Shown: in pieces, positions 13,521 to 52,666 of the stretch | How positions within the stretch are numbered: the first letter of the stretch is position 1 | Layout of the letters: every line of letters starts with the position of its first letter | Assembly (NCBI GenBank): GCA_016193335.1 | Contig: JACPSK010000001.1 | Span: 422,962 to 486,961 of the forward strand | Direction of reading: 5' to 3' | Source: Candidatus Magasanikiibacteriota bacterium | GTDB lineage: Bacteria; Patescibacteriota; Patescibacteriia; Magasanikbacterales; UBA922 | Length of the DNA stretch: 64,000 nt | Translations under genes and position numbers: made by a program | Notes under the pieces: model-generated | Seen by the model: the letters and a program-made list of their open reading frames with translations, nothing else | Told to the model about the DNA's origin: nothing | Database searches by the model: none

Positions 13521-13613
13521 CAAAAGAACTGTTTCAGGAGACTGCGGAGCGCGATCTGGCGCGAGCCTGAGCGAAAATTCAGCAGAATTTTACGCGTGCT
13601 CCTGAAACAGTTA
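13521..13613. repeat. perfect 14-bp inverted repeat (aactgtttcaggag / ctcctgaaacagtt) enclosing a 65-nt GC-rich loop
   Basis: Read directly from the sequence. It lies upstream of rpsB on the minus strand, adjacent to the GC island. Confidence 0.5.
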
Positions 13614-13662
13614 TTTTGTGAAATAAAATTTTAAAATAAATAAAAACACTTAGAAATGAAGA

Positions 13663-13700
13663 AGGACGGCCACGCATCTGCGCAACCGTCCTTCCAAGGG
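13663..13700 (-). terminator. candidate intrinsic terminator for the GC-rich gene
   Basis: On the minus strand: gaaggacgg…ccgtccttc (9-bp GC stem) followed by a U-rich tract. Confidence 0.35.
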
Positions 13701-13726
13701 TAGCTTCTGCCACCCTACTCCTTACT

Positions 13727-15322
13727 TCACTTCTTTTTGTTCTTACCACCACCCTTCTTCGGGTGGTCCTCCTTGGCCGGCGCCTCGGGCGCGGGGACCT
13801 GGTCCGAGGCCGTGGGCACCTCGACCTGATCGGCCGCGGCCTCCGCCACCTCGTCGGGGACGGACGGCATGGTCTCCGCGGCATCGGCCTCGGCCGTGGG
13901 CTCCGTGGCCAGGACGACCTCGGTGGCCGGCTCCGGCGCGACGGCCATGCCCTGGTCGGCCTTGGCCACCGCCTCGTCCTCGACGACCGACGTGGGCTCC
14001 GCCACAAGGTCAGCAGACGCGACCGGCACCGCCTTCGGCTCCCGCTTGGGCTCGGGGAGGCCGAGCTTCCGGCGGACCATGCGGTCCAGCTCGGTCGAGC
14101 TCATACCCCCCGCGGCCTTACGGAAGGCCTCGGCCACCGGTTCGACCCGATCATCCGCGGGGTTCTCCTGGTGGTGCTTGGCCTGGCGCTCGGCCGCGGC
14201 CTCCTTGAGGAGGCGCGTGACATCGAGGTTCCCGAGATCCGCGTCCTCGGGGAGAGCATCGACGATGCGCCTCGCCGACTTGTTGGCGGACTTGACGGTG
14301 GGCACGCCGCCCATCCTCACCAGCCGCTCCCCGATCTCATCCACGAGTCGCTTCTTCGCCATGCGACGCGTGCGCTTGGCCTCGTCGGCCTCGGCCAGCG
14401 CCAGGAGCTCGGCACGCTCGGCCTCGATCTCCTCGCGGCTCCGCGGCCGGGGCATGCTGAAGAGCATGGCCAGCTCGGGGAGCTTGCGGGCCTCCCGAGC
14501 GATATTCATCTTCTGCGGGTCATCGGCGCTGATCTCTCGGATCTGTTCCTTGGTCATCACGCCGTGAGCCCGGAAGACCCTCTCCAGCTTGTCGAGCAGA
14601 TTCTGGAGCGTCCGAACCCGCTCCCGGTAGAGGCCGACGGCCTCGCCGGTGAGGTTCGGCTGGTCCTTCCGGAGCATGCCCTGGAGCTTGCGCATGTGCA
14701 TCTCCGTGAGGATGACGAAACGCATACCCGCGGACCACTTGGCGTTCCGCCAGACCAAGTCCGGGAAGATCCCGGCCAGCTCGGTCCGCAGGGGGTGCCC
14801 CACCTCGATGGGCCCGCGCTCCGGCGGCGGGGCGACCACGCGGGCCGTCTGTCCGCCCTCGTCCGCCAGCATGGCCGTGCCGGCCTTCGAGTGGCCGTTG
14901 CCACCGACCTTGCCCTTGGGGGTCTCGACGGCGGGCGGCGGGGCCACGGGCGCGGGCTCGGCGGGCTCCTCGTCGTCCTCGAACAGGAAGGCCATGGCCG
15001 CGGCCTGGGCCGCCTTGGCCTCGGCGATCTGCGCCTCGACGCCGCGCTTCCACTTCGTGACCATGAGGCCGCGACCCTCGGGGGTCGCGAGGAGATCCTC
15101 GGCCTTCATCGCAGCCAGACCGCGGAGGATCCGCTCGGACTTGGCCTTCGCCGCCTCGTCCTTGGCCACGGCCTGTTCGGCCTTGGCCTTCGTCGTCTTC
15201 TCCTCGATCAGCTGGACCGCGGTGGCCAGCAGCTCCTCGTTCGTGGGCTCACGGACGGTCGTGCCGTCCGACGTGAAGAAACCCGACTCGGATGCCACAA
15301 CCGCCTGCGTCTCATCGCTCAT
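13727..15322 (-). CDS. hypothetical acidic Ala/Glu/Lys/Pro-rich protein (~533 aa) in a high-GC island; no family recognised
   Basis: Continuous minus-strand ORF with G/C at nearly every third codon position. The start is taken at MSDETQAVV, and the tail ends KKGGGKNKKK. The flanks are AT-rich. Confidence 0.55.
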   Translation of the reverse strand: MSDETQAVVASESGFFTSDGTTVREPTNEELLATAVQLIEEKTTKAKAEQAVAKDEAAKAKSERILRGLAAMKAEDLLATPEGRGLMVTKWKRGVEAQIAEAKAAQAAAMAFLFEDDEEPAEPAPVAPPPAVETPKGKVGGNGHSKAGTAMLADEGGQTARVVAPPPERGPIEVGHPLRTELAGIFPDLVWRNAKWSAGMRFVILTEMHMRKLQGMLRKDQPNLTGEAVGLYRERVRTLQNLLDKLERVFRAHGVMTKEQIREISADDPQKMNIAREARKLPELAMLFSMPRPRSREEIEAERAELLALAEADEAKRTRRMAKKRLVDEIGERLVRMGGVPTVKSANKSARRIVDALPEDADLGNLDVTRLLKEAAAERQAKHHQENPADDRVEPVAEAFRKAAGGMSSTELDRMVRRKLGLPEPKREPKAVPVASADLVAEPTSVVEDEAVAKADQGMAVAPEPATEVVLATEPTAEADAAETMPSVPDEVAEAAADQVEVPTASDQVPAPEAPAKEDHPKKGGGKNKKK

Positions 15323-15497
15323 GGTCGCAATCTCCAATCGAACGCCGATGCGTTCGATATCAAAAAAATTAAGAACACACTCAAAAGCCTCGCAAACCCA
15401 AGGTACGACCCCAAGAAAGCGTGACTCGAGCCAGAGACTATAGCGAATGATAATGAATTTGTCAAGTATAGGCCTCAACAGAGCGAAAAAATCGCCC

Positions 15498-23361: not shown

Positions 23362-25577
<2,216 letters not shown>

Positions 25578-25656
25578 AATATTTCCATTCCATTGCATGG
25601 AAGCCTTTGCTTAACATTCAATGGAATGGAAGAGTTCGTATTGGCGAACTCTTTAA

Positions 25657-25992
25657 TCAAGGGCTTGCGGCCGCGGTCTCCTCGAGAGGGGGCCCGCAGA
25701 CCAACACCTGCGTGCCGTAGCTCATGCGGCGCGCGGAGCCCTCATCGAGACCATTGCAGGCCAAGGTGTGAGGCAAGGTAGCCCCCCGGGACCGGTACTG
25801 GTCCACTCGGGTGGCAACCCGCTCCCCGTCGGTCAGACGGACATTCTCCTCGATCACTCGCCAGGAGTTGGGGATCTCTTGGCGAGGAGCCTCAACGGGC
25901 TCTGCGATGGCCCCCCTCCAGGCGAGGACCGCCCAAACCCAAACACCTACAATACAAAGTCCGAAAACGAACCAGCCAATCAATCTCTTCAT
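25657..25992 (-). CDS. hypothetical small protein with an N-terminal signal/anchor, in a GC-rich island
   Basis: MKRLIGWFVFGLCIVGVWVWAVLA…. There is a GGAGAG RBS 4 nt before the ATG, and third codon positions are G/C-rich. The 3' end runs through a NotI-SacII-XhoI-ApaI site cluster. Confidence 0.45.
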   Translation of the reverse strand: MKRLIGWFVFGLCIVGVWVWAVLAWRGAIAEPVEAPRQEIPNSWRVIEENVRLTDGERVATRVDQYRSRGATLPHTLACNGLDEGSARRMSYGTQVLVCGPPLEETAAASP

Positions 25993-26087
25993 GTGCCTCT
26001 CCTATGTTGCCCTCATACATTCTCGCAAGAATACATAAAGGCCACATAGGATACAAAAACAACTCAACATAGCATATTTATCCACTT

Positions 26088-38663: not shown

Positions 38664-40103
38664 ATGAGACGTCGTGAATTCTTAAAAGGATTAGGGGCCG
38701 GAGCAGCTACTCTATTTTTTACTGGTGACAAAGATAACAAACCAACTCCAGCGCCAATGGAGTCCGAAACCGAGAATGAGAGAGAAAGACCTTTTAGTTA
38801 CAGTGACTTTCTGGAAGGACGCCCTGAATTTTCAAAAAACGCGGCATTGTCTGAACGCGTAGAACAAGCATGGGGAGACGGCACGGCCCTGCTCGATTAT
38901 GTGGCTGATCGCATTCCAGCTGTCATGTCCATTGATTTCCCAAAATCCAAACCTATCAACGAGCTCCTACGCAAAAATTATCCGAAAGTCGTCCCTAACA
39001 TTTTTCTGCAAGACCAGGCTGAAAATGAACTAAGACAAATAGGCCAATGGCTCAGTCTCCTCGCACATATTGCTGGCGCAGAAAGACCATACACGCCAAA
39101 GCTTGTGGACCAGGTGCTTGATTATCTCTACCAAAATAGGGGAACGGGCTTGGCTGATAGAAGTGAAAGTCACATCATGTCGCTCGAAGGCGAACTCGCT
39201 GAACATGCGCCGCAAGACTCTCGCCTACTGTCTCTCATCGAGCAAAGATACAAACAAGGAATTTCAAGCTCTTCGGGTAGTAATGACGACAGTGTTTGGC
39301 ACACAGAGGACGCCAGATTTCCAAGCACACCAGAATTAAGCTGGCTTATGGCCACAGCCGCTCGTTTGCATATGGGGTATGATGAAAAAAAATTTCGTTT
39401 AGTAGAAGAACTCGCTTACGACTTTGATACTGAAGGCAGACAAATATTCAATAACCGAATACCCGAAGTACAGGCATCACCACGAGATTTGGCTGAAGTG
39501 GCATTATACTATATGACTCCTCCAAAAAGTGAGTCAGATCGGCGACGTATTACCATGTCCGGAAATTGGGGCTTTATTGAACATGGCGCCCACGTTGTCC
39601 ATGGAGGACTGCTTCTTTTAGGAACTTACCAAAAAGAAATGGCTGATCGTGATCCTGAACTGCTCAAAAATTTACGCGCTCAGACTTACGAATCGATAAA
39701 AGAGATACTTTTCTATCGTCATTCAGACTCTATTAAAGACAAAAATAAACCTAACCAACAACGAGCGCACGAAGATTACCTCTACGGCGGCCACTTACTG
39801 CAAGCCGTGCTTGATGAACAAGCTGGCGCTATTTTTGAGATACAGGGTGAATTTTTCACCGCTCAGCAAGTCTATACCAAATACGGATCAGAGATTGCAG
39901 AACATGCGGAAAAAATAACAAAAAGTGAAAAACCTGTCACAGACTATGACGCGCTTGATGTATTAGCCACCATCGCAGATCTAGCCGCAAGCGACCTCAG
40001 ACCTGTCGTAGAACACAGCACAGCATCAAAAAGTTCGGTACCTTTTTATGTCGGCCACACCATAGCCGGGCTCAATAGATTAAGGGAAATTATAAAAAAA
40101 TAA
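38664..40103 (+). CDS. hypothetical secreted protein with a twin-arginine signal
   Basis: MRRREFLKGLGAGAATLFF (an RRxFLK Tat motif). No domain recognised. Confidence 0.5.
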   Translation: MRRREFLKGLGAGAATLFFTGDKDNKPTPAPMESETENERERPFSYSDFLEGRPEFSKNAALSERVEQAWGDGTALLDYVADRIPAVMSIDFPKSKPINELLRKNYPKVVPNIFLQDQAENELRQIGQWLSLLAHIAGAERPYTPKLVDQVLDYLYQNRGTGLADRSESHIMSLEGELAEHAPQDSRLLSLIEQRYKQGISSSSGSNDDSVWHTEDARFPSTPELSWLMATAARLHMGYDEKKFRLVEELAYDFDTEGRQIFNNRIPEVQASPRDLAEVALYYMTPPKSESDRRRITMSGNWGFIEHGAHVVHGGLLLLGTYQKEMADRDPELLKNLRAQTYESIKEILFYRHSDSIKDKNKPNQQRAHEDYLYGGHLLQAVLDEQAGAIFEIQGEFFTAQQVYTKYGSEIAEHAEKITKSEKPVTDYDALDVLATIADLAASDLRPVVEHSTASKSSVPFYVGHTIAGLNRLREIIKK

Positions 40104-40166
40104 ATTCAATATTTTATTTTATATGACGAAGCGACCCTGCGCAAGGATCGCTTTCTGTTTGCCCCC

Positions 40167-41105
40167 CTATTTTCGGCCGGCTTCAAAATCCAAGATCCAC
40201 TCGTTCGCCTCGGTGAACCTCTCGTAGAGCCAGGTCTTGATGGCCAGCTGATCTTCCGCCTCATCCGGCAGAACGCCAGGCGGCTCCACCAGCTCAAAAC
40301 GCACGAGAGCGCGAGTGCCCCCGTCTTGTGCTTTTCGAGCCAGCATATCCCAAGATTCGGTTTCACCATCCGGCTCAAGGCCGGGAGAAAACGCGGTGCT
40401 CATAAAGACCACCTGGGCTCCCGGAACCCCGCGGATCAAGGCCTGCGTCCCCCGGTAAGAAGGCGCGAGAGTCCGAAGGCTTTTTAGACTCAACAAAGGA
40501 TACCCCATGCCATGAAAGAAACGCAGGGCATCGGCGCGGCGGCCTCGGAAAGGCCTGCTCCTATCCGGAAAGAGCATAAAGAGCGGCGCCCGCTCACCAT
40601 TCAGGTTCGCAAGCCCTGCTTTGATAGCCGAGACCGCGGAGTCGCCCTTGCGCTTGCGGATAAACATGCCGCGAGCCAGCTTGACTCCAATGGCGAGCGG
40701 TATTGCTTGCCAGCGGTGCTTGGCGTCCGCCACCACGCGGGGCACCTTGCCACCGAACAAGTCAAGGATGTGTTCCACCATCCCCGGGATCACAGAGGTA
40801 AAGGGATGCGGGCCAATAAGCAGAATAGGTCGTTCATGGTCTATTCCCTCAAGACCCTGTGTCTCCCTTTCAACTTTCAAACCAAGGGATGGATAGCACT
40901 CCTTCATGGTCTCGACAATCCAGGACCGTACATAGGGCGCCATTTCCTTGCCCCTGATCCAAACCGCCCACAAAGCCCGCGCAAAAACCCAGCGGGTCAA
41001 AATCACCAACGCGCGCCACAAAATGCGTTTGCCGGAAACAAAATCAGGCGTTTTGCTCATCTCAGCCATGTTGCGTCCCTCCGTGTTTCCTATTTCTTCT
41101 ACCAT
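40167..41105 (-). CDS. hypothetical protein in a GC-rich island; weak acyltransferase-like resemblance (…LFPDRSRPF…)
   Basis: G/C-rich third codon positions. The family call is tentative only. Confidence 0.4.
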   Translation of the reverse strand: MVEEIGNTEGRNMAEMSKTPDFVSGKRILWRALVILTRWVFARALWAVWIRGKEMAPYVRSWIVETMKECYPSLGLKVERETQGLEGIDHERPILLIGPHPFTSVIPGMVEHILDLFGGKVPRVVADAKHRWQAIPLAIGVKLARGMFIRKRKGDSAVSAIKAGLANLNGERAPLFMLFPDRSRPFRGRRADALRFFHGMGYPLLSLKSLRTLAPSYRGTQALIRGVPGAQVVFMSTAFSPGLEPDGETESWDMLARKAQDGGTRALVRFELVEPPGVLPDEAEDQLAIKTWLYERFTEANEWILDFEAGRK

Positions 41106-41169
41106 TTTCAGAGTTCTGTGTCAATCGCTCTTGCTTATTTGTTTGTATTTGTTCGATTCATTTATAAAA

Positions 41170-41245
41170 CAAAAACCACCCTCGTCCGATCTACATAATT
41201 ATTATTATGAATATCGGACGTTTGAGGGTGGTTTTGATTTCTCCT
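41170..41245 (-). terminator. long hairpin terminator (aaccaccctcgtccgat…atcggacg…gagggtggtt) followed by tttttgtttt on the minus strand
   Basis: ~17-bp stem with a 22-nt loop, read directly. Confidence 0.5.
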
Positions 41246-41313
41246 GAGACAGCAGGACTCGAGCGTCGCGCAATTGCGCTTCGCGAGTTCTGCCGCCTAG
41301 TCAGGAAGCCTCT

Positions 41314-41694
41314 CTAGACCAGGTAGAGCACAGTGATCACCACCATGGCCACACCGATGAGAATGAGAACCAGGCCTTCGATGGCCTGGAGCCAGCGATC
41401 CTCCGCGGAACGCTCGATACTCCCGATGTCGTCGTCGATGTACTGGGACCGCTCGGTCACGGCCCTTTCGATCTCAAAAACTCCCAGGAAGAAAATCAGG
41501 CCTCCGGGGAGGCCAAGGAACATACTCGCCACCTGGCGAGCAATCCCCCAGTAACTCTCAGGAGGGGTGTACCGCGCGGCCAGGTACATCAGGCCGCTTA
41601 CAATGAAGGTCAGCAGGGTACCGAAGAACAGGAAGGCGAAGGCCGCCTCCCAAAGGGCCGCGGCCCTCTTCTTCAATTCGTCCAAAAAAAACAT
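41314..41694 (-). CDS. hypothetical small membrane protein in a GC-rich island
   Basis: Three predicted TM helices, and an AGGAAA RBS 6 nt before the ATG. Confidence 0.45.
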   Translation of the reverse strand: MFFLDELKKRAAALWEAAFAFLFFGTLLTFIVSGLMYLAARYTPPESYWGIARQVASMFLGLPGGLIFFLGVFEIERAVTERSQYIDDDIGSIERSAEDRWLQAIEGLVLILIGVAMVVITVLYLV

Positions 41695-41975
41695 GGTGGC
41701 TTTCCTTTCACAGTTTCACACGGGGGACACCTCTCTTTTTAGAAATTTTCCTAAAAAAGGAGCTGGCCCCTTCACAAGGTGTGAAGGAAAAAGTAAAAAA
41801 TGATCCTACTTTCTAATAAGTTAACGAATGAGTATAGCACAAAAATGGGCTTTTGTCAATCTTCTGTACCAAAAAACCCTTATTTAAGAGCTTTTTTATT
41901 CATTTGAAAAATCATCGGCTATACACACCAAAACACTTGAAAGCCAAAACCAAACCATGCTACAATAAACTAAAT

Positions 41976-43130: not shown

Positions 43131-44747
43131 ATGAAAGAACAAAGTACCTACACGCATATCGCCTCTTACGAGCCCAAGGATCCGAGCGAAGTAAAACGAG
43201 TGGTGCTCCTCTACTCCGGCGGACTCGATACTTCGGTAATGCTCAAATGGATTCAAGACAGATACCACGCGGAAGTGATAGCTCTTTGCTTGGACATTGG
43301 CCAGCTTGCCGATGACCTGGAATTTATAAAACAAAAGGCGCTTAAACTTGGCGCGATCAAAGCCATTGTGCTCGATTGCAAAGACGAATTCGCTGACAAA
43401 TATATTTCCCGGGCTATAAAAGCCAACGCCTGCTACCAGGGAGACTACCACCTCAGCACGCCCATCGGCAGACCTCTTCTCGCCAAAAAAGCGGTGCAAA
43501 TCGCTTTTGAAGAAAAAGCCGACACGATAGCCCACGGCTGTACGGGCAAAGGCAATGATCAGGTCCGCTTGGAAGGCACCGCCGTTACGCTCAATCCGGA
43601 CATCAAAATTATCGCCCCTGTCCGCGAATGGGGCATGGGGAGAGACGAAGAAATAGCTTACGCGGAAAAACACGGTATTCCCATAAGCCATAGCGCAAGC
43701 AAGCCCTACAGCCATGATGACAATATGTGGGGCGTAACCAGCGAAGGCGGAGAAATAGAAAATCCGGAACTCATCCCGCCCCTCGAAAATATTCTTGAAA
43801 TAAGCACTCCGCCCAAAAAAGCTCCGGATCAGGAAGAATTGGTACATCTCGAATTTGTAAAGGGCCTACCAGTTTCTCTCAATGGAGAACAAATGAAACT
43901 GAGCGAATTGGTCATACGGCTCAATCGCTTGGCCGGCAAACATGGGGTGGGAATCGTGCACCATCTGGAAGACAGGGTGGTGGGTTTGAAAGTTCGAGGC
44001 TTGTACGAACAGCCCGCGGCTCATGTCATTATCAAAGCACATAAAGAACTGGAAAAATACGTCTGTACCCGGCATGAAAACAAATTCAAAGAATTGGTAG
44101 ACCAAGAATGGGCATACCTGTGCTACGGAGCGCTTTGGTACGAACCGCTCATGAAAAATCTTTCCGGTTTTATAGACACGGTGAATGAAAAAGTAAATGG
44201 CACGGTAACCCTAAGACTGTACAAAGGAAATTGCGACGTGGTGGCTCTCAAAACTCCTGATGCCCTGTTTGACGAAAAACTGGCCACCTTCAATAAAAAC
44301 GATTTGTTCAATCAAAATGCCTCACCCGGTTTCATTGAGCTGTGGACTTTGCAAATGAAGATGGCTCGACAGACCAAAAAAAATATCCTGTTTACGGTGA
44401 GCGGAGCAAAAAAACAAGAATTACTTCAAAGTATGCGAGACTTGCAAAAATTAAATTGCATATTGTACGCCACCAAACATACCAGCGAATTTATGGAACA
44501 GCATGACATCGTCAACAAACTGGTGCACAAAATTTCAACCCAAGAAAGGCCGAACATTGAAACGCTCATGCGAGAACGCCGTTTTGACCTTATCATCAAT
44601 ATACCTTCTCCAGAAGGAAACGGAGAACAAAAAACCGATGGGGAAAGAATGCGAGAACTGGCCGTGGAGCACAATGTCCCTCTCGTCACTGACGTGGATG
44701 TGGCCAAAAGCATGGTGGAAAAACTCAAACAAATATACGAACGCTAA
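43131..44747 (+). CDS. argG: argininosuccinate synthase fused to a C-terminal MGS-like (CarB C-terminal type) domain
   Basis: N-terminal part: VLLYSGGLDTSV…AHGCTGKGNDQVR (ArgG). The C-terminal ~130 aa (ILFTVSGAKKQELLQ…LYATKHTSEF…DLIINIPS…) resembles a methylglyoxal-synthase-like domain. Confidence 0.8.
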   Translation: MKEQSTYTHIASYEPKDPSEVKRVVLLYSGGLDTSVMLKWIQDRYHAEVIALCLDIGQLADDLEFIKQKALKLGAIKAIVLDCKDEFADKYISRAIKANACYQGDYHLSTPIGRPLLAKKAVQIAFEEKADTIAHGCTGKGNDQVRLEGTAVTLNPDIKIIAPVREWGMGRDEEIAYAEKHGIPISHSASKPYSHDDNMWGVTSEGGEIENPELIPPLENILEISTPPKKAPDQEELVHLEFVKGLPVSLNGEQMKLSELVIRLNRLAGKHGVGIVHHLEDRVVGLKVRGLYEQPAAHVIIKAHKELEKYVCTRHENKFKELVDQEWAYLCYGALWYEPLMKNLSGFIDTVNEKVNGTVTLRLYKGNCDVVALKTPDALFDEKLATFNKNDLFNQNASPGFIELWTLQMKMARQTKKNILFTVSGAKKQELLQSMRDLQKLNCILYATKHTSEFMEQHDIVNKLVHKISTQERPNIETLMRERRFDLIINIPSPEGNGEQKTDGERMRELAVEHNVPLVTDVDVAKSMVEKLKQIYER

Positions 44748-52294: not shown

Positions 52295-52666
52295 TCATCC
52301 TTCCCCCGCCTCGGTGCGAGACAGCCAGGTCTCCGCGTCGTTGCTATGTCTTATCAGCATACCGCCGAGCAAGGATGCTTCCACGGCTTCATCGGCCGAG
52401 AAGACGAGCAAAACCGCTCCCGGCAGAACCGCTTCCTCGGAGGCCACATAGACCTCTAAGTCTTCGGGGGGGAACCCTTTTCCTCTCATATCTTCAAGGA
52501 GCAAATCTATCCAGATAATCTCCGCGGCCCGGAGAATCCAGGCCAGCTCGCCTGACTCCGAACGGCTCTCACAGAGAACCTGGATCTCAAACTTGCCCAC
52601 CTCGGGGCGCTCAATACAACGGACCACCAAAGGCGGCCCCAAAACCACAACTCCTGCGTTCCGCAT
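52295..52666 (-). CDS. hypothetical small acidic protein (GC-rich)
   Basis: ORF with G/C-rich codons. A hairpin gcgctcagc-cggtt-gctgagcgc lies downstream. Confidence 0.35.
   Translation of the reverse strand: MRNAGVVVLGPPLVVRCIERPEVGKFEIQVLCESRSESGELAWILRAAEIIWIDLLLEDMRGKGFPPEDLEVYVASEEAVLPGAVLLVFSADEAVEASLLGGMLIRHSNDAETWLSRTEAGEG

Follow-up and report, generated by a model that had tools for sequence, protein, structure and literature searches.

Within the window, a 64-kb stretch that represents the portion seen of a Candidatus Magasanikbacteria (CPR/Patescibacteria) genome, two open reading frames of 312 and 126 aa lie on the minus strand at 40167-41105 and 41314-41694, precisely as given in a preliminary description of this DNA. 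They are placed between a gene for a 479-aa protein and an amidohydrolase gene, and the locus comprises the following features:

40129-40153, no strand assigned: short GC-rich hairpin, candidate bidirectional terminator where the 479-aa Tat-signal gene and the acyltransferase-like gene converge, between their stop codons
40167-41069, minus strand: acyltransferase-like coding sequence, PlsC/LPLAT superfamily, 300 aa (longest open reading frame, from ATG 41105, 312 aa)
41096-41124, minus strand: weak promoter-like site of the acyltransferase-like gene, TTGACA-17 nt-TAGAAG, read directly from the sequence
41167-41240, minus strand: long hairpin (inverted repeat I2) followed by a U-run, predicted intrinsic terminator of the 126-aa gene, in a spacer of normal GC
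41314-41694, minus strand: orphan coding sequence, 126 aa, predicted three-helix membrane protein (open reading frame; NCBI annotation HYY51_02065, assigned to a Candidatus Magasanikbacteria MAG)
41831-41859, minus strand: predicted consensus sigma-70-type promoter of the 126-aa gene, TTGACA-17 nt-TATACT with extended TG (promoter scan, 11 of 12 matches)
41937-41966, plus strand: predicted amidohydrolase promoter, divergent from that of the 126-aa gene

Of the two flanking assignments made earlier, that of the amidohydrolase is firm (NCBIfam PRK06886, E 1.5e-105), whereas the Tat signal of the 479-aa protein is matched weakly (E 0.009). The two genes in between are clear compositional outliers. 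Whole-gene GC amounts to 0.573 for the acyltransferase-like gene and 0.583 for the 126-aa gene, compared to a mean of 0.450 (sd 0.021, maximum 0.502) for the 49 other open reading frames of at least 100 aa in the window, corresponding to z = 5.8 and 6.2, and at third codon positions (GC3) the values are 0.649 and 0.780 versus 0.458 (sd 0.045; z = 4.2 and 7.1). The GC-rich island with G/C-biased codons, distinct from its flanks, is thereby borne out, and the pair departs from host composition in the manner of a genomic island, with 57-58% GC in a genome background of 45%. In 200-bp windows, GC is 0.53-0.62 over both coding sequences and 0.42 within the spacer; the spacer as a whole (41070-41313) has 0.44 and the flanks 0.36-0.43, so that only the coding sequences show the excess. 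An assembly chimera is ruled out: across the region, a second NCBI assembly and 11 contigs assembled from independent runs agree at 99.8-100% identity.

For the larger gene, ATG 41069, yielding 300 aa, is more likely the true start than ATG 41105, since it is preceded by GGAGG at a distance of 8 nt and was picked in several cases by gene callers run on independent assemblies. The promoter-like site overlapping ATG 41105 was unreported by the consensus promoter scan and its -10 hexamer ends in a base other than T; if used, it would start transcription downstream of ATG 41105, which would favor the shorter form as well.

The window protein itself matches no Pfam and no NCBIfam family at E <= 1, and a word-indexed homologue search returned self-hits only. 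A HMMER scan of 1.84 billion representatives recovered the gene's own product and 13 others of 19-32% identity; 12 of these 14 relatives belong to a divergent family, and the remaining two are weak matches with a canonical HX4D motif. Membership of PF01553 is indirect, via relatives and profile, as the window protein does not reach the curated threshold: eight of the ten relatives scanned match at E <= 0.1, and five (P0008, P0011, P0007, P0010 and P0012) exceed the 23-bit cut-off. In an alignment that pairs His100 with the catalytic histidine, the family profile matches Thermotoga maritima PlsC (5KYM; PF01553) with E 1.2e-13, and the AF2 model (pLDDT 80.8, pTM 0.83) retrieves 5KYM as top hit in Foldseek (E 1.7e-6), followed by squash GPAT. 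The predicted model displays the alpha/beta acyltransferase fold common to PlsC, GPAT, tafazzin, PatA and LpxM. Remote homology, the PlsC profile match and the predicted fold hence agree and support the larger protein as an acyltransferase-like member of the PlsC/GPAT/LPLAT superfamily, a kinship that had been suspected from faint sequence resemblance. As an enzyme it is of an ordinary kind, a divergent subfamily of a well-known fold, and the curiosity is its persistent GC excess.

The likeness to T. maritima PlsC extends to an N-terminal helix pair preceding the alpha/beta core (model helices 20-50 and 56-74, residues 20-38 of the 300-aa form being hydrophobic and serving as predicted membrane anchor) and to counterparts of motifs II, III and IV. 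However, identity is only 10-17%, and the window protein has an additional C-terminal extension of about 80 residues after the catalytic domain. Motif I reads H100-P-F-T-S-V105, compared to HQSLMD in PlsC; the histidine is kept and the acid is exchanged (Asp to Val), in agreement with the original remark that HX4D is not intact. Motif II (GMFIRKRKG) retains Arg151, present in at least 90% of the sequences, and motif III (FPDRSR, versus FPEGTR in PlsC) retains the invariant Arg184, with the usual Gly replaced by Arg in the window protein. Motif IV (APSYRG) holds Pro215, found in at least 90%, and Gly219, which together with His100 and Arg184 is invariant throughout the family alignment.

Beyond PlsC, the YihG-type LPAAT of Escherichia coli (NCBIfam NF058536) has a similar length of about 290-300 aa, and the relative P0011 aligns to this model from residue 8 to 260 (model positions 11-260 of 290, E 2e-7). 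Its score of 30 bits is however to be set against a curated cut-off of 260, and the window protein yields no match; the YihG-type relation is thus a lead rather than membership. PatA and LpxM share the LPLAT fold and also depart from the canonical acid, but PIM and lipid A, on which they act, would not be expected in CPR bacteria, and no counterpart of the remote Glu of PatA-type enzymes was identified in the window protein.

Six further Magasanikbacteria-type species (L013, L018, L097, L016, L182 and L183) carry a homologue of the acyltransferase-like gene that converges on gatB, P0011 being the copy of L016. The gatB-adjacent slot is empty in L023, L119, L121, L129 and L180, and among relatives the slot between gatB and the amidohydrolase gene varies, being empty or occupied by a 479-aa gene or by a GC-rich 137-aa membrane open reading frame (L105). 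In a neighbor-joining tree of GatB, all seven carriers fall on one side, although this grouping is itself weakly supported, and a sister subclade (bootstrap 72-95) is devoid of the gene. All relatives for which contigs were inspected reside among CPR-type genes, and no homologue was detected in a clearly non-CPR genome, apart from the two weak canonical HX4D matches. Among species, the acyltransferase-like proteins are about 23-34% identical in pairwise comparison, versus 62-72% for GatB and 53-77% for the amidohydrolase. These data lead us to favor, with a probability of roughly 0.6, that the larger gene belongs to the resident complement, has been inherited vertically and is a very fast-diverging member of the PlsC superfamily, that the 126-aa gene is a separate unit, and that the GC excess does not reflect the recent import of a module.

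How would such a resident protein operate? The N-terminal helix pair would anchor it in the membrane, followed by the alpha/beta catalytic domain, the putative active site of which comprises His100 of motif I, Arg151 in FIRKRKG of motif II, Arg184 in FPDRSR of motif III and Pro215/Gly219 of motif IV. At the cytoplasmic membrane face, the protein may then acylate a lysolipid-type acceptor at the expense of an activated acyl donor. Such transfer would fit the lipid-scavenging lifestyle proposed for CPR bacteria, the genomes of which keep PlsY and PlsC without fatty-acid synthesis, with lysolipids enriched in CPR-sized cells (PMC7242380). The family would in this manner add a candidate lipid-remodelling activity to organisms unable to make their own fatty acids.

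The family also exhibits a natural loss of the HX4D acid within a PlsC-type lineage. Among the gatB-linked homologues, the residue five positions after the histidine is Asp in L018 and Glu in L097, L183 and L016, while the acid is gone in three of seven copies, namely the window (Val), L013 (Phe) and L182 (Val). With the acid lost here and in two relatives, catalysis may be altered or weakened, and it is conceivable, if unlikely, that the PlsC-fold membrane protein no longer transfers acyl groups, being a pseudoenzyme or having acquired a new function. The three copies are among the most GC-shifted, the arginine in motif III points in the same direction, the window protein is without a Pfam match whereas GC-normal relatives have one, and release from catalytic constraint would explain the rapid divergence. 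However, His100, Pro101, Arg151, Arg184, Pro215 and Gly219 are invariant or nearly so even though the sequences compared share only 19-26% identity with the window protein, indicating purifying selection on the active-site framework, and the open reading frame is intact in all species. Moreover, a remote Glu can stand in for the HX4D acid in PatA-type enzymes, an arrangement that would be compatible with retained activity.

Returning to the resident gene, its GC excess is recurrent and gene-specific, being present in every species with the gene beside gatB. In each of the seven carriers, the acyltransferase-like gene exceeds gatB in GC (one-sided Wilcoxon p = 0.0078), with differences of +13.5, +15.4, +9.6, +13.1, +7.6, +2.0 and +2.3 points, and GC3 is elevated by +0.01 to +0.30. 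Set against the genome of its carrier, the gene stands 8-15 points higher in five of the seven (GC3 +0.08 to +0.30) and approximately 2 points higher in the remaining pair. It forms the sole GC peak within 12.8 kb of L097, and family members elsewhere show 61% GC in a 56% background (L100) and, in a different context, a 62% GC island within flanks of 36-38% (L101). The low identity of the proteins, as compared to GatB, should rule out leftover donor composition. Translational selection is rejected as a cause, as highly expressed genes use AAA (80%) and GAA (74%), while the acyltransferase-like gene uses AAG (53%) and GAG (62%). Neither does a general rule that fast-evolving genes are GC-rich apply, since the GPDPase_memb gene is 30-35% identical among species and has normal GC.

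Three candidate causes are considered: selection acting on the rarity of codons, a process that favors GC locally, and repeated replacement. Synonymous sites between the carrier species should be saturated, and if so, an active gene-specific force must act to keep the excess; we regard such a force, as opposed to leftover donor composition, as a tentative possibility with the odds somewhat against it. Candidates for this force are a hotspot of GC-biased conversion or repair, or selection for host-rare G/C-ending codons by which the translation of a membrane enzyme is throttled or paced, and it may also drive the extreme divergence of the protein. The same process could have produced the other GC-rich orphan open reading frames that are scattered amid housekeeping genes, both in the window and in relatives. 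If the excess is actively maintained, the gene lends itself as a small natural system for testing forces that act on the base composition of single genes in bacteria, and is a caution for composition-based calls of horizontal transfer in metagenome-assembled genomes.

Repeated replacement takes the form of serial xenologous exchange, in which the slot always held an acyltransferase-like gene, replaced in several lineages by divergent alleles from GC-richer CPR bacteria; if true, this renews the GC excess and creates the extreme divergence. The 23-34% identity is star-like, applying to all pairs whatever the species distance, and GC-rich family members do exist, as in L100 and L101. Furthermore, the neighbor-joining tree of the acyltransferase family sets the window, L013 and L182 apart from a group with bootstrap 88 that comprises L018, L097, L016 and L183, and L013 and L018, with the most similar amidohydrolases (77%), hence have acyltransferase-like genes in different groups, a discordance that could reflect replacement instead of pure vertical descent. 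Gene exchange among Patescibacteria is also documented (PMC12455944). On the other hand, replacement at exactly one site and in one orientation in several lineages needs homologous flanks, and the ends of gatB and of the amidohydrolase gene that face the slot are without GC elevation; no donor-like close relatives were found among 15 billion proteins; and long-branch attraction of the most GC-shifted sequences could yield the tree discordance. We consequently consider serial exchange rather improbable, and retain a vertically inherited gene as the preferred explanation.

Turning to the smaller gene, the 126-aa protein agrees with the three-helix membrane protein anticipated from its sequence, with hydrophobic segments at residues 18-36, 55-73 and 108-126 and an all-helical AF2 model (pLDDT 79.8). 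Besides its own NCBI entry, no homologue was found among 5.8 billion clusters, no significant Pfam or NCBIfam family was detected, and a BFVD fold search with the model returned nothing below E = 2. A borderline PHROGs match (minor head protein, E 0.0019) was judged as noise, and homology to the 137-aa open reading frame in the slot of L105 was rejected (E 0.36). At the related loci fetched, including all six others with the enzyme gene beside gatB, no homologue is present.

The absence of relatives raises the question of whether the frame is a chance opening in GC-rich DNA, which is stop-poor and harbors overlapping open reading frames in such islands. We consider this quite improbable. GC at the three codon positions is 0.59, 0.38 and 0.78, representing strong coding periodicity, an AGGA-type ribosome-binding site precedes the ATG, and the upstream promoter agrees with consensus at 11 of 12 positions in addition to the extended TG. 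The three hydrophobic helices are cleanly predicted and the sequence is identical in independent assemblies. Past the stop codon, the long hairpin (arms 41167-41183 and 41224-41240), noted previously as a terminator between the two genes, folds at -42.3 kcal/mol (z = -7.5, none of 200 shuffles folding as well) and is followed by the UUUUUGUUUU tail; Rfam matches in the region and in the whole window were limited to sub-threshold, miRNA-like noise on this hairpin. The strong terminator and the own promoter, along with the composition of the spacer, indicate that the two genes are separate transcription units, the 126-aa one being lineage-specific.

This division bears on the proposal that the pair constitutes a transferred module, perhaps a membrane enzyme plus a partner. 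None of the six other loci with the enzyme gene beside gatB contains the small gene, so the two neither co-occur nor appear to be co-transcribed and do not form a module, and no evidence was found for the 126-aa protein as a functional partner of the enzyme. Homology to an ordinary resident family was obtained for the larger gene only, and its GC anomaly stands. Rather than having distant closest relatives and being absent at the same position in kin, this gene finds its closest relatives in Magasanikbacteria-type species, next to gatB in six of them, and with such synteny its atypical GC is not readable as recent transfer. Composition-based detectors would call the island recent HGT, whereas synteny over seven species shows the acyltransferase-like gene to be resident.

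Atypical genomic islands and phage 'morons' do resemble the locus in their atypical GC, in a promoter and terminator for each gene, and in a variable slot. In contrast, the window genes are without signs of integrase or transposase at the locus; no tRNA was found in the 64 kb, no border repeats occur at either gene, the GC-rich islands share no sequences beyond chance, and searches for viral contig, plasmid (tblastn) and phage (blastn) matches, as well as PADLOC, returned none. That a GC-rich donor recently supplied the pair, which then landed between the Tat-signal and amidohydrolase genes, is therefore very improbable and for the larger gene largely refuted, as the compositional outliers (z about 6), the shift to G/C-ending codons unlike those of the host's highly expressed genes, the variable slot and a relativeless small gene, as expected from an unsampled donor, are outweighed by the identically placed and oriented homologues of six other species, the near-confinement of the family to CPR genomes, the lack of mobility signatures, a spacer with host-like GC and a host-type terminator, and the small gene missing where relatives carry the enzyme.

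As a check of population variation, all window contigs are 99.8-100% identical, and L124 and L137 equal L018 and L013 exactly. The 479-aa Tat-signal protein was also compared to the 479-aa protein in the slot of L165, and homology was rejected (E 0.42). At its convergent border with the acyltransferase-like gene, the minus-strand fold of 40095-40175 is the weaker (z = -1.3), while the plus-strand fold reaches -15.8 kcal/mol (z = -3.0) and is followed by UUUCUGUUUG.

Two minus-strand genes divided by a long-hairpin terminator had been proposed to form a GC-rich island in the preliminary description, and each of these elements was recovered:

40167-41105, minus strand: larger ORF, acyltransferase-like, 312 aa as the longest ORF
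41167-41183 and 41224-41240: arms of the hairpin in the spacer (-42.3 kcal/mol, z = -7.5), with a U-run after it
41314-41694, minus strand: small ORF, 126 aa
41859-41831, minus strand: near-consensus promoter upstream of the small gene (TTGACA, 17 nt, TATACT, with TG)

The island is indeed distinct from its background. Relative to the 49 other window ORFs with a length of 100 aa or more (GC 0.450, sd 0.021, maximum 0.502; GC3 0.458, sd 0.045), the larger and the small gene reach GC z-scores of 5.8 and 6.2, with GC3 values of 0.649 (z = 4.2) and 0.780 (z = 7.1), respectively. Mean GC of the window is 45%, and in 200-bp windows both coding sequences lie at 0.53-0.62, GC falling to 0.42 in between. 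The excess does not extend beyond the genes: GC is 0.44 in the spacer 41070-41313 and 0.36-0.43 in the outer flanks. An assembly chimera is ruled out, since the region is 99.8-100% identical in 11 contigs from independent sequencing runs and in a second NCBI assembly.

The larger protein itself matched no Pfam or NCBIfam model directly, and among 5.8 billion clusters a word-indexed search returned the protein alone. HMMER, run exhaustively over 1.84 billion representatives, recovered 14 proteins including the product of the larger gene, the 13 relatives being 19-32% identical. PF01553 (Acyltransferase) was found at E <= 0.1 in eight of the ten proteins scanned, five of them over Pfam's cut-off, and the family profile matched Thermotoga maritima PlsC (5KYM; E 1.2e-13) with the family histidine aligned to the catalytic one. 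An AlphaFold2 model built from the family alignment was confident (pLDDT 80.8, pTM 0.83). His100, Arg184 and Gly219 are invariant among sequences just 19-26% identical to the window protein, and Pro101, Arg151 and Pro215 nearly so. The acid of the HX4D motif is absent from the window protein, which reads HPFTSV; among homologues linked to gatB this position holds D in locus L018 and E in L097, L183 and L016, while it is V in the window, F in L013 and V in L182. The initial view of an acyltransferase-like protein without an intact HX4D is thus upheld, as the relatives match PF01553, the profile matches PlsC and the acid is missing. The assignment of the larger gene as an enzyme is supported, and the gene adds a highly divergent new member to a superfamily of enzymes already known. 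Its product would be a membrane-anchored lysolipid acyltransferase, perhaps with modified catalysis. CPR genomes reportedly keep PlsY and PlsC and lack fatty-acid synthesis, and CPR-sized cells are enriched in lysolipids (PMC7242380). Because GGAGG lies 8 nt ahead of a second ATG at 41069, the start chosen by gene callers on several independent assemblies, the protein is probably of 300 aa.

The suggestion that the pair is a transferred two-gene module did not hold. The closest relative of the larger protein (P0003/P0026, PIT86691.1), from another Magasanikbacteria MAG, is encoded in the same slot between amidohydrolase and gatB, convergent with gatB, and the arrangement recurs in five further loci (L018, L097, L016, L182 and L183), of which L097 is a piece of a complete 1.23-Mb genome. 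GatB relatives of 64-70% identity come from Magasanikbacteria/Patescibacteria MAGs, several records being auto-titled as other taxa. A GatB neighbor-joining tree places the seven carriers and one empty-slot species on one side, in a weakly supported grouping, and a sister subclade (bootstrap 72-95) is without any copy of the larger gene. No gene occupies the slot in L023, L119, L121, L129 and L180, and unrelated genes fill it in L165 and L105. No tRNA, border repeats, integrase or similarity to phages, plasmids or defence systems were found, and none of the related loci has the small gene. Transfer as a module is therefore rejected for the larger gene, present in the same slot in six other species, and unsupported for the pair, which is not a conserved module as the small gene is missing from the relatives and a strong terminator divides the two.

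The slot of the window also holds a 479-aa Tat-signal protein (38664-40103), with a weak Tat signal, no other Pfam domain, normal GC and low GC3 (0.38). It is lineage-specific, and no relative has it between gatB and the amidohydrolase; hence the slot gathers novel genes of both compositions. The L105 slot is occupied by an unrelated small ORF of 137 aa, GC-rich and multi-TM (2130-2543; 60-66% GC against a 49% background, GC3 0.71), without similarity to the 126-aa window protein (E 0.36).

The part surprising to a specialist is solely the persistence of the GC excess across species, observed in seven carriers. The larger gene is GC-richer than the adjoining gatB in all seven (one-sided Wilcoxon p = 0.0078, the lowest attainable with n = 7).

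Difference in GC (points) and GC3 between the larger gene and gatB
Window: +13.5; +0.20
L013: +15.4; +0.29
L182: +9.6; +0.30
L097: +13.1; +0.22
L018: +7.6; +0.08
L183: +2.0; +0.04
L016: +2.3; +0.01

In L097 the homologue is the sole GC peak across 12.8 kb. The most extreme jump seen for the acyltransferase family belongs to a member in unrelated context (P0010, L101 717-1601), with 62% GC and GC3 0.74 next to neighbours of 35-36% GC. Pairwise identity is about 23-34% for the larger-gene homologues, 62-72% for GatB and 53-77% for the amidohydrolase. Given a GatB amino-acid identity of about 65%, saturation of synonymous sites is to be expected between carriers. Foreign base composition reportedly decays, following the amelioration argument of Lawrence and Ochman from 1997, and an ancestral foreign composition of the larger gene should consequently have decayed by now.

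Two explanations of the excess remain. One is a maintained bias specific to the gene, caused either by selection favouring codons rare in the host or by a GC-biased process acting locally. The other is repeated replacement by divergent GC-rich alleles, congruent with a family neighbor-joining tree in which the gatB-linked genes form two groups discordant with amidohydrolase similarity, a split that long-branch attraction could however equally yield. Translational selection was rejected, as highly expressed genes use AAA (80%) and GAA (74%) whereas the larger gene uses AAG (53%) and GAG (62%). General weak constraint fails with the neighbouring GPDPase_memb gene, equally divergent (30-35% identity) yet of normal GC. 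A regional effect fails too, since GC is elevated neither in the spacers nor at the near ends of gatB and the amidohydrolase.

For the small protein, which NCBI lists as a hypothetical protein from a Candidatus Magasanikbacteria MAG, no relative was detectable by sequence searches and no viral match by fold search. The ORF nevertheless looks like a real gene, considering its strong codon periodicity (GC1/2/3 = 0.59/0.38/0.78), consensus promoter, ribosome-binding site, strong terminator and three clean predicted hydrophobic helices, the latter congruent with the three-helix membrane protein originally described. We can go no further than to predict a small protein integral to the membrane, expressed independently as a separate unit.

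The window contains five GC-rich ORFs, each of them minus-strand, and only the acyltransferase-like gene received a family assignment; across 650 kb of related contigs, roughly 2% of the ORFs are outliers of this kind. The strongest island (13577-15480, up to 77% GC), flanked by rpsB and an rpmE-like gene as read from translation, holds an Ala/Glu/Pro-rich 583-aa ORF (13727-15478, minus; GC 0.68, GC3 0.88) without significant Pfam or PHROG match; several ORFs that overlap in other frames probably arise as artefacts of the high GC. A second island (25510-26084), reaching 66% GC, lies downstream of gyrB, ahead of a nusG-like gene, and carries a 111-aa ORF (25657-25992, minus) with an N-terminal hydrophobic anchor, with neither a family match for this ORF nor an RNA gene. 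A 123-aa ORF between plus-strand genes, outside the original description (52295-52666, minus; GC 0.58, GC3 0.66), had no family match. L018, a Magasanikbacteria contig of 50% GC, shows a 60-70% GC stretch (327-2148) on the upstream side of a dCMP-deaminase-like domain; no clean reading frame runs through this stretch, which may represent non-coding DNA or a gene in decay. The amidohydrolase (NCBIfam PRK06886, an equivalog titled 'hypothetical protein' and related to cytosine deaminases) lies next to a 538-aa argininosuccinate synthase (43131-44747) with an extra C-terminal MGS-like domain, assigned by PF02142 in L001, where the called gene is identical; the fusion is also found in L097. The whole 64-kb window contains zero tRNA genes and zero Rfam families at gathering threshold, and its cumulative GC skew falls monotonically over 1-64000.
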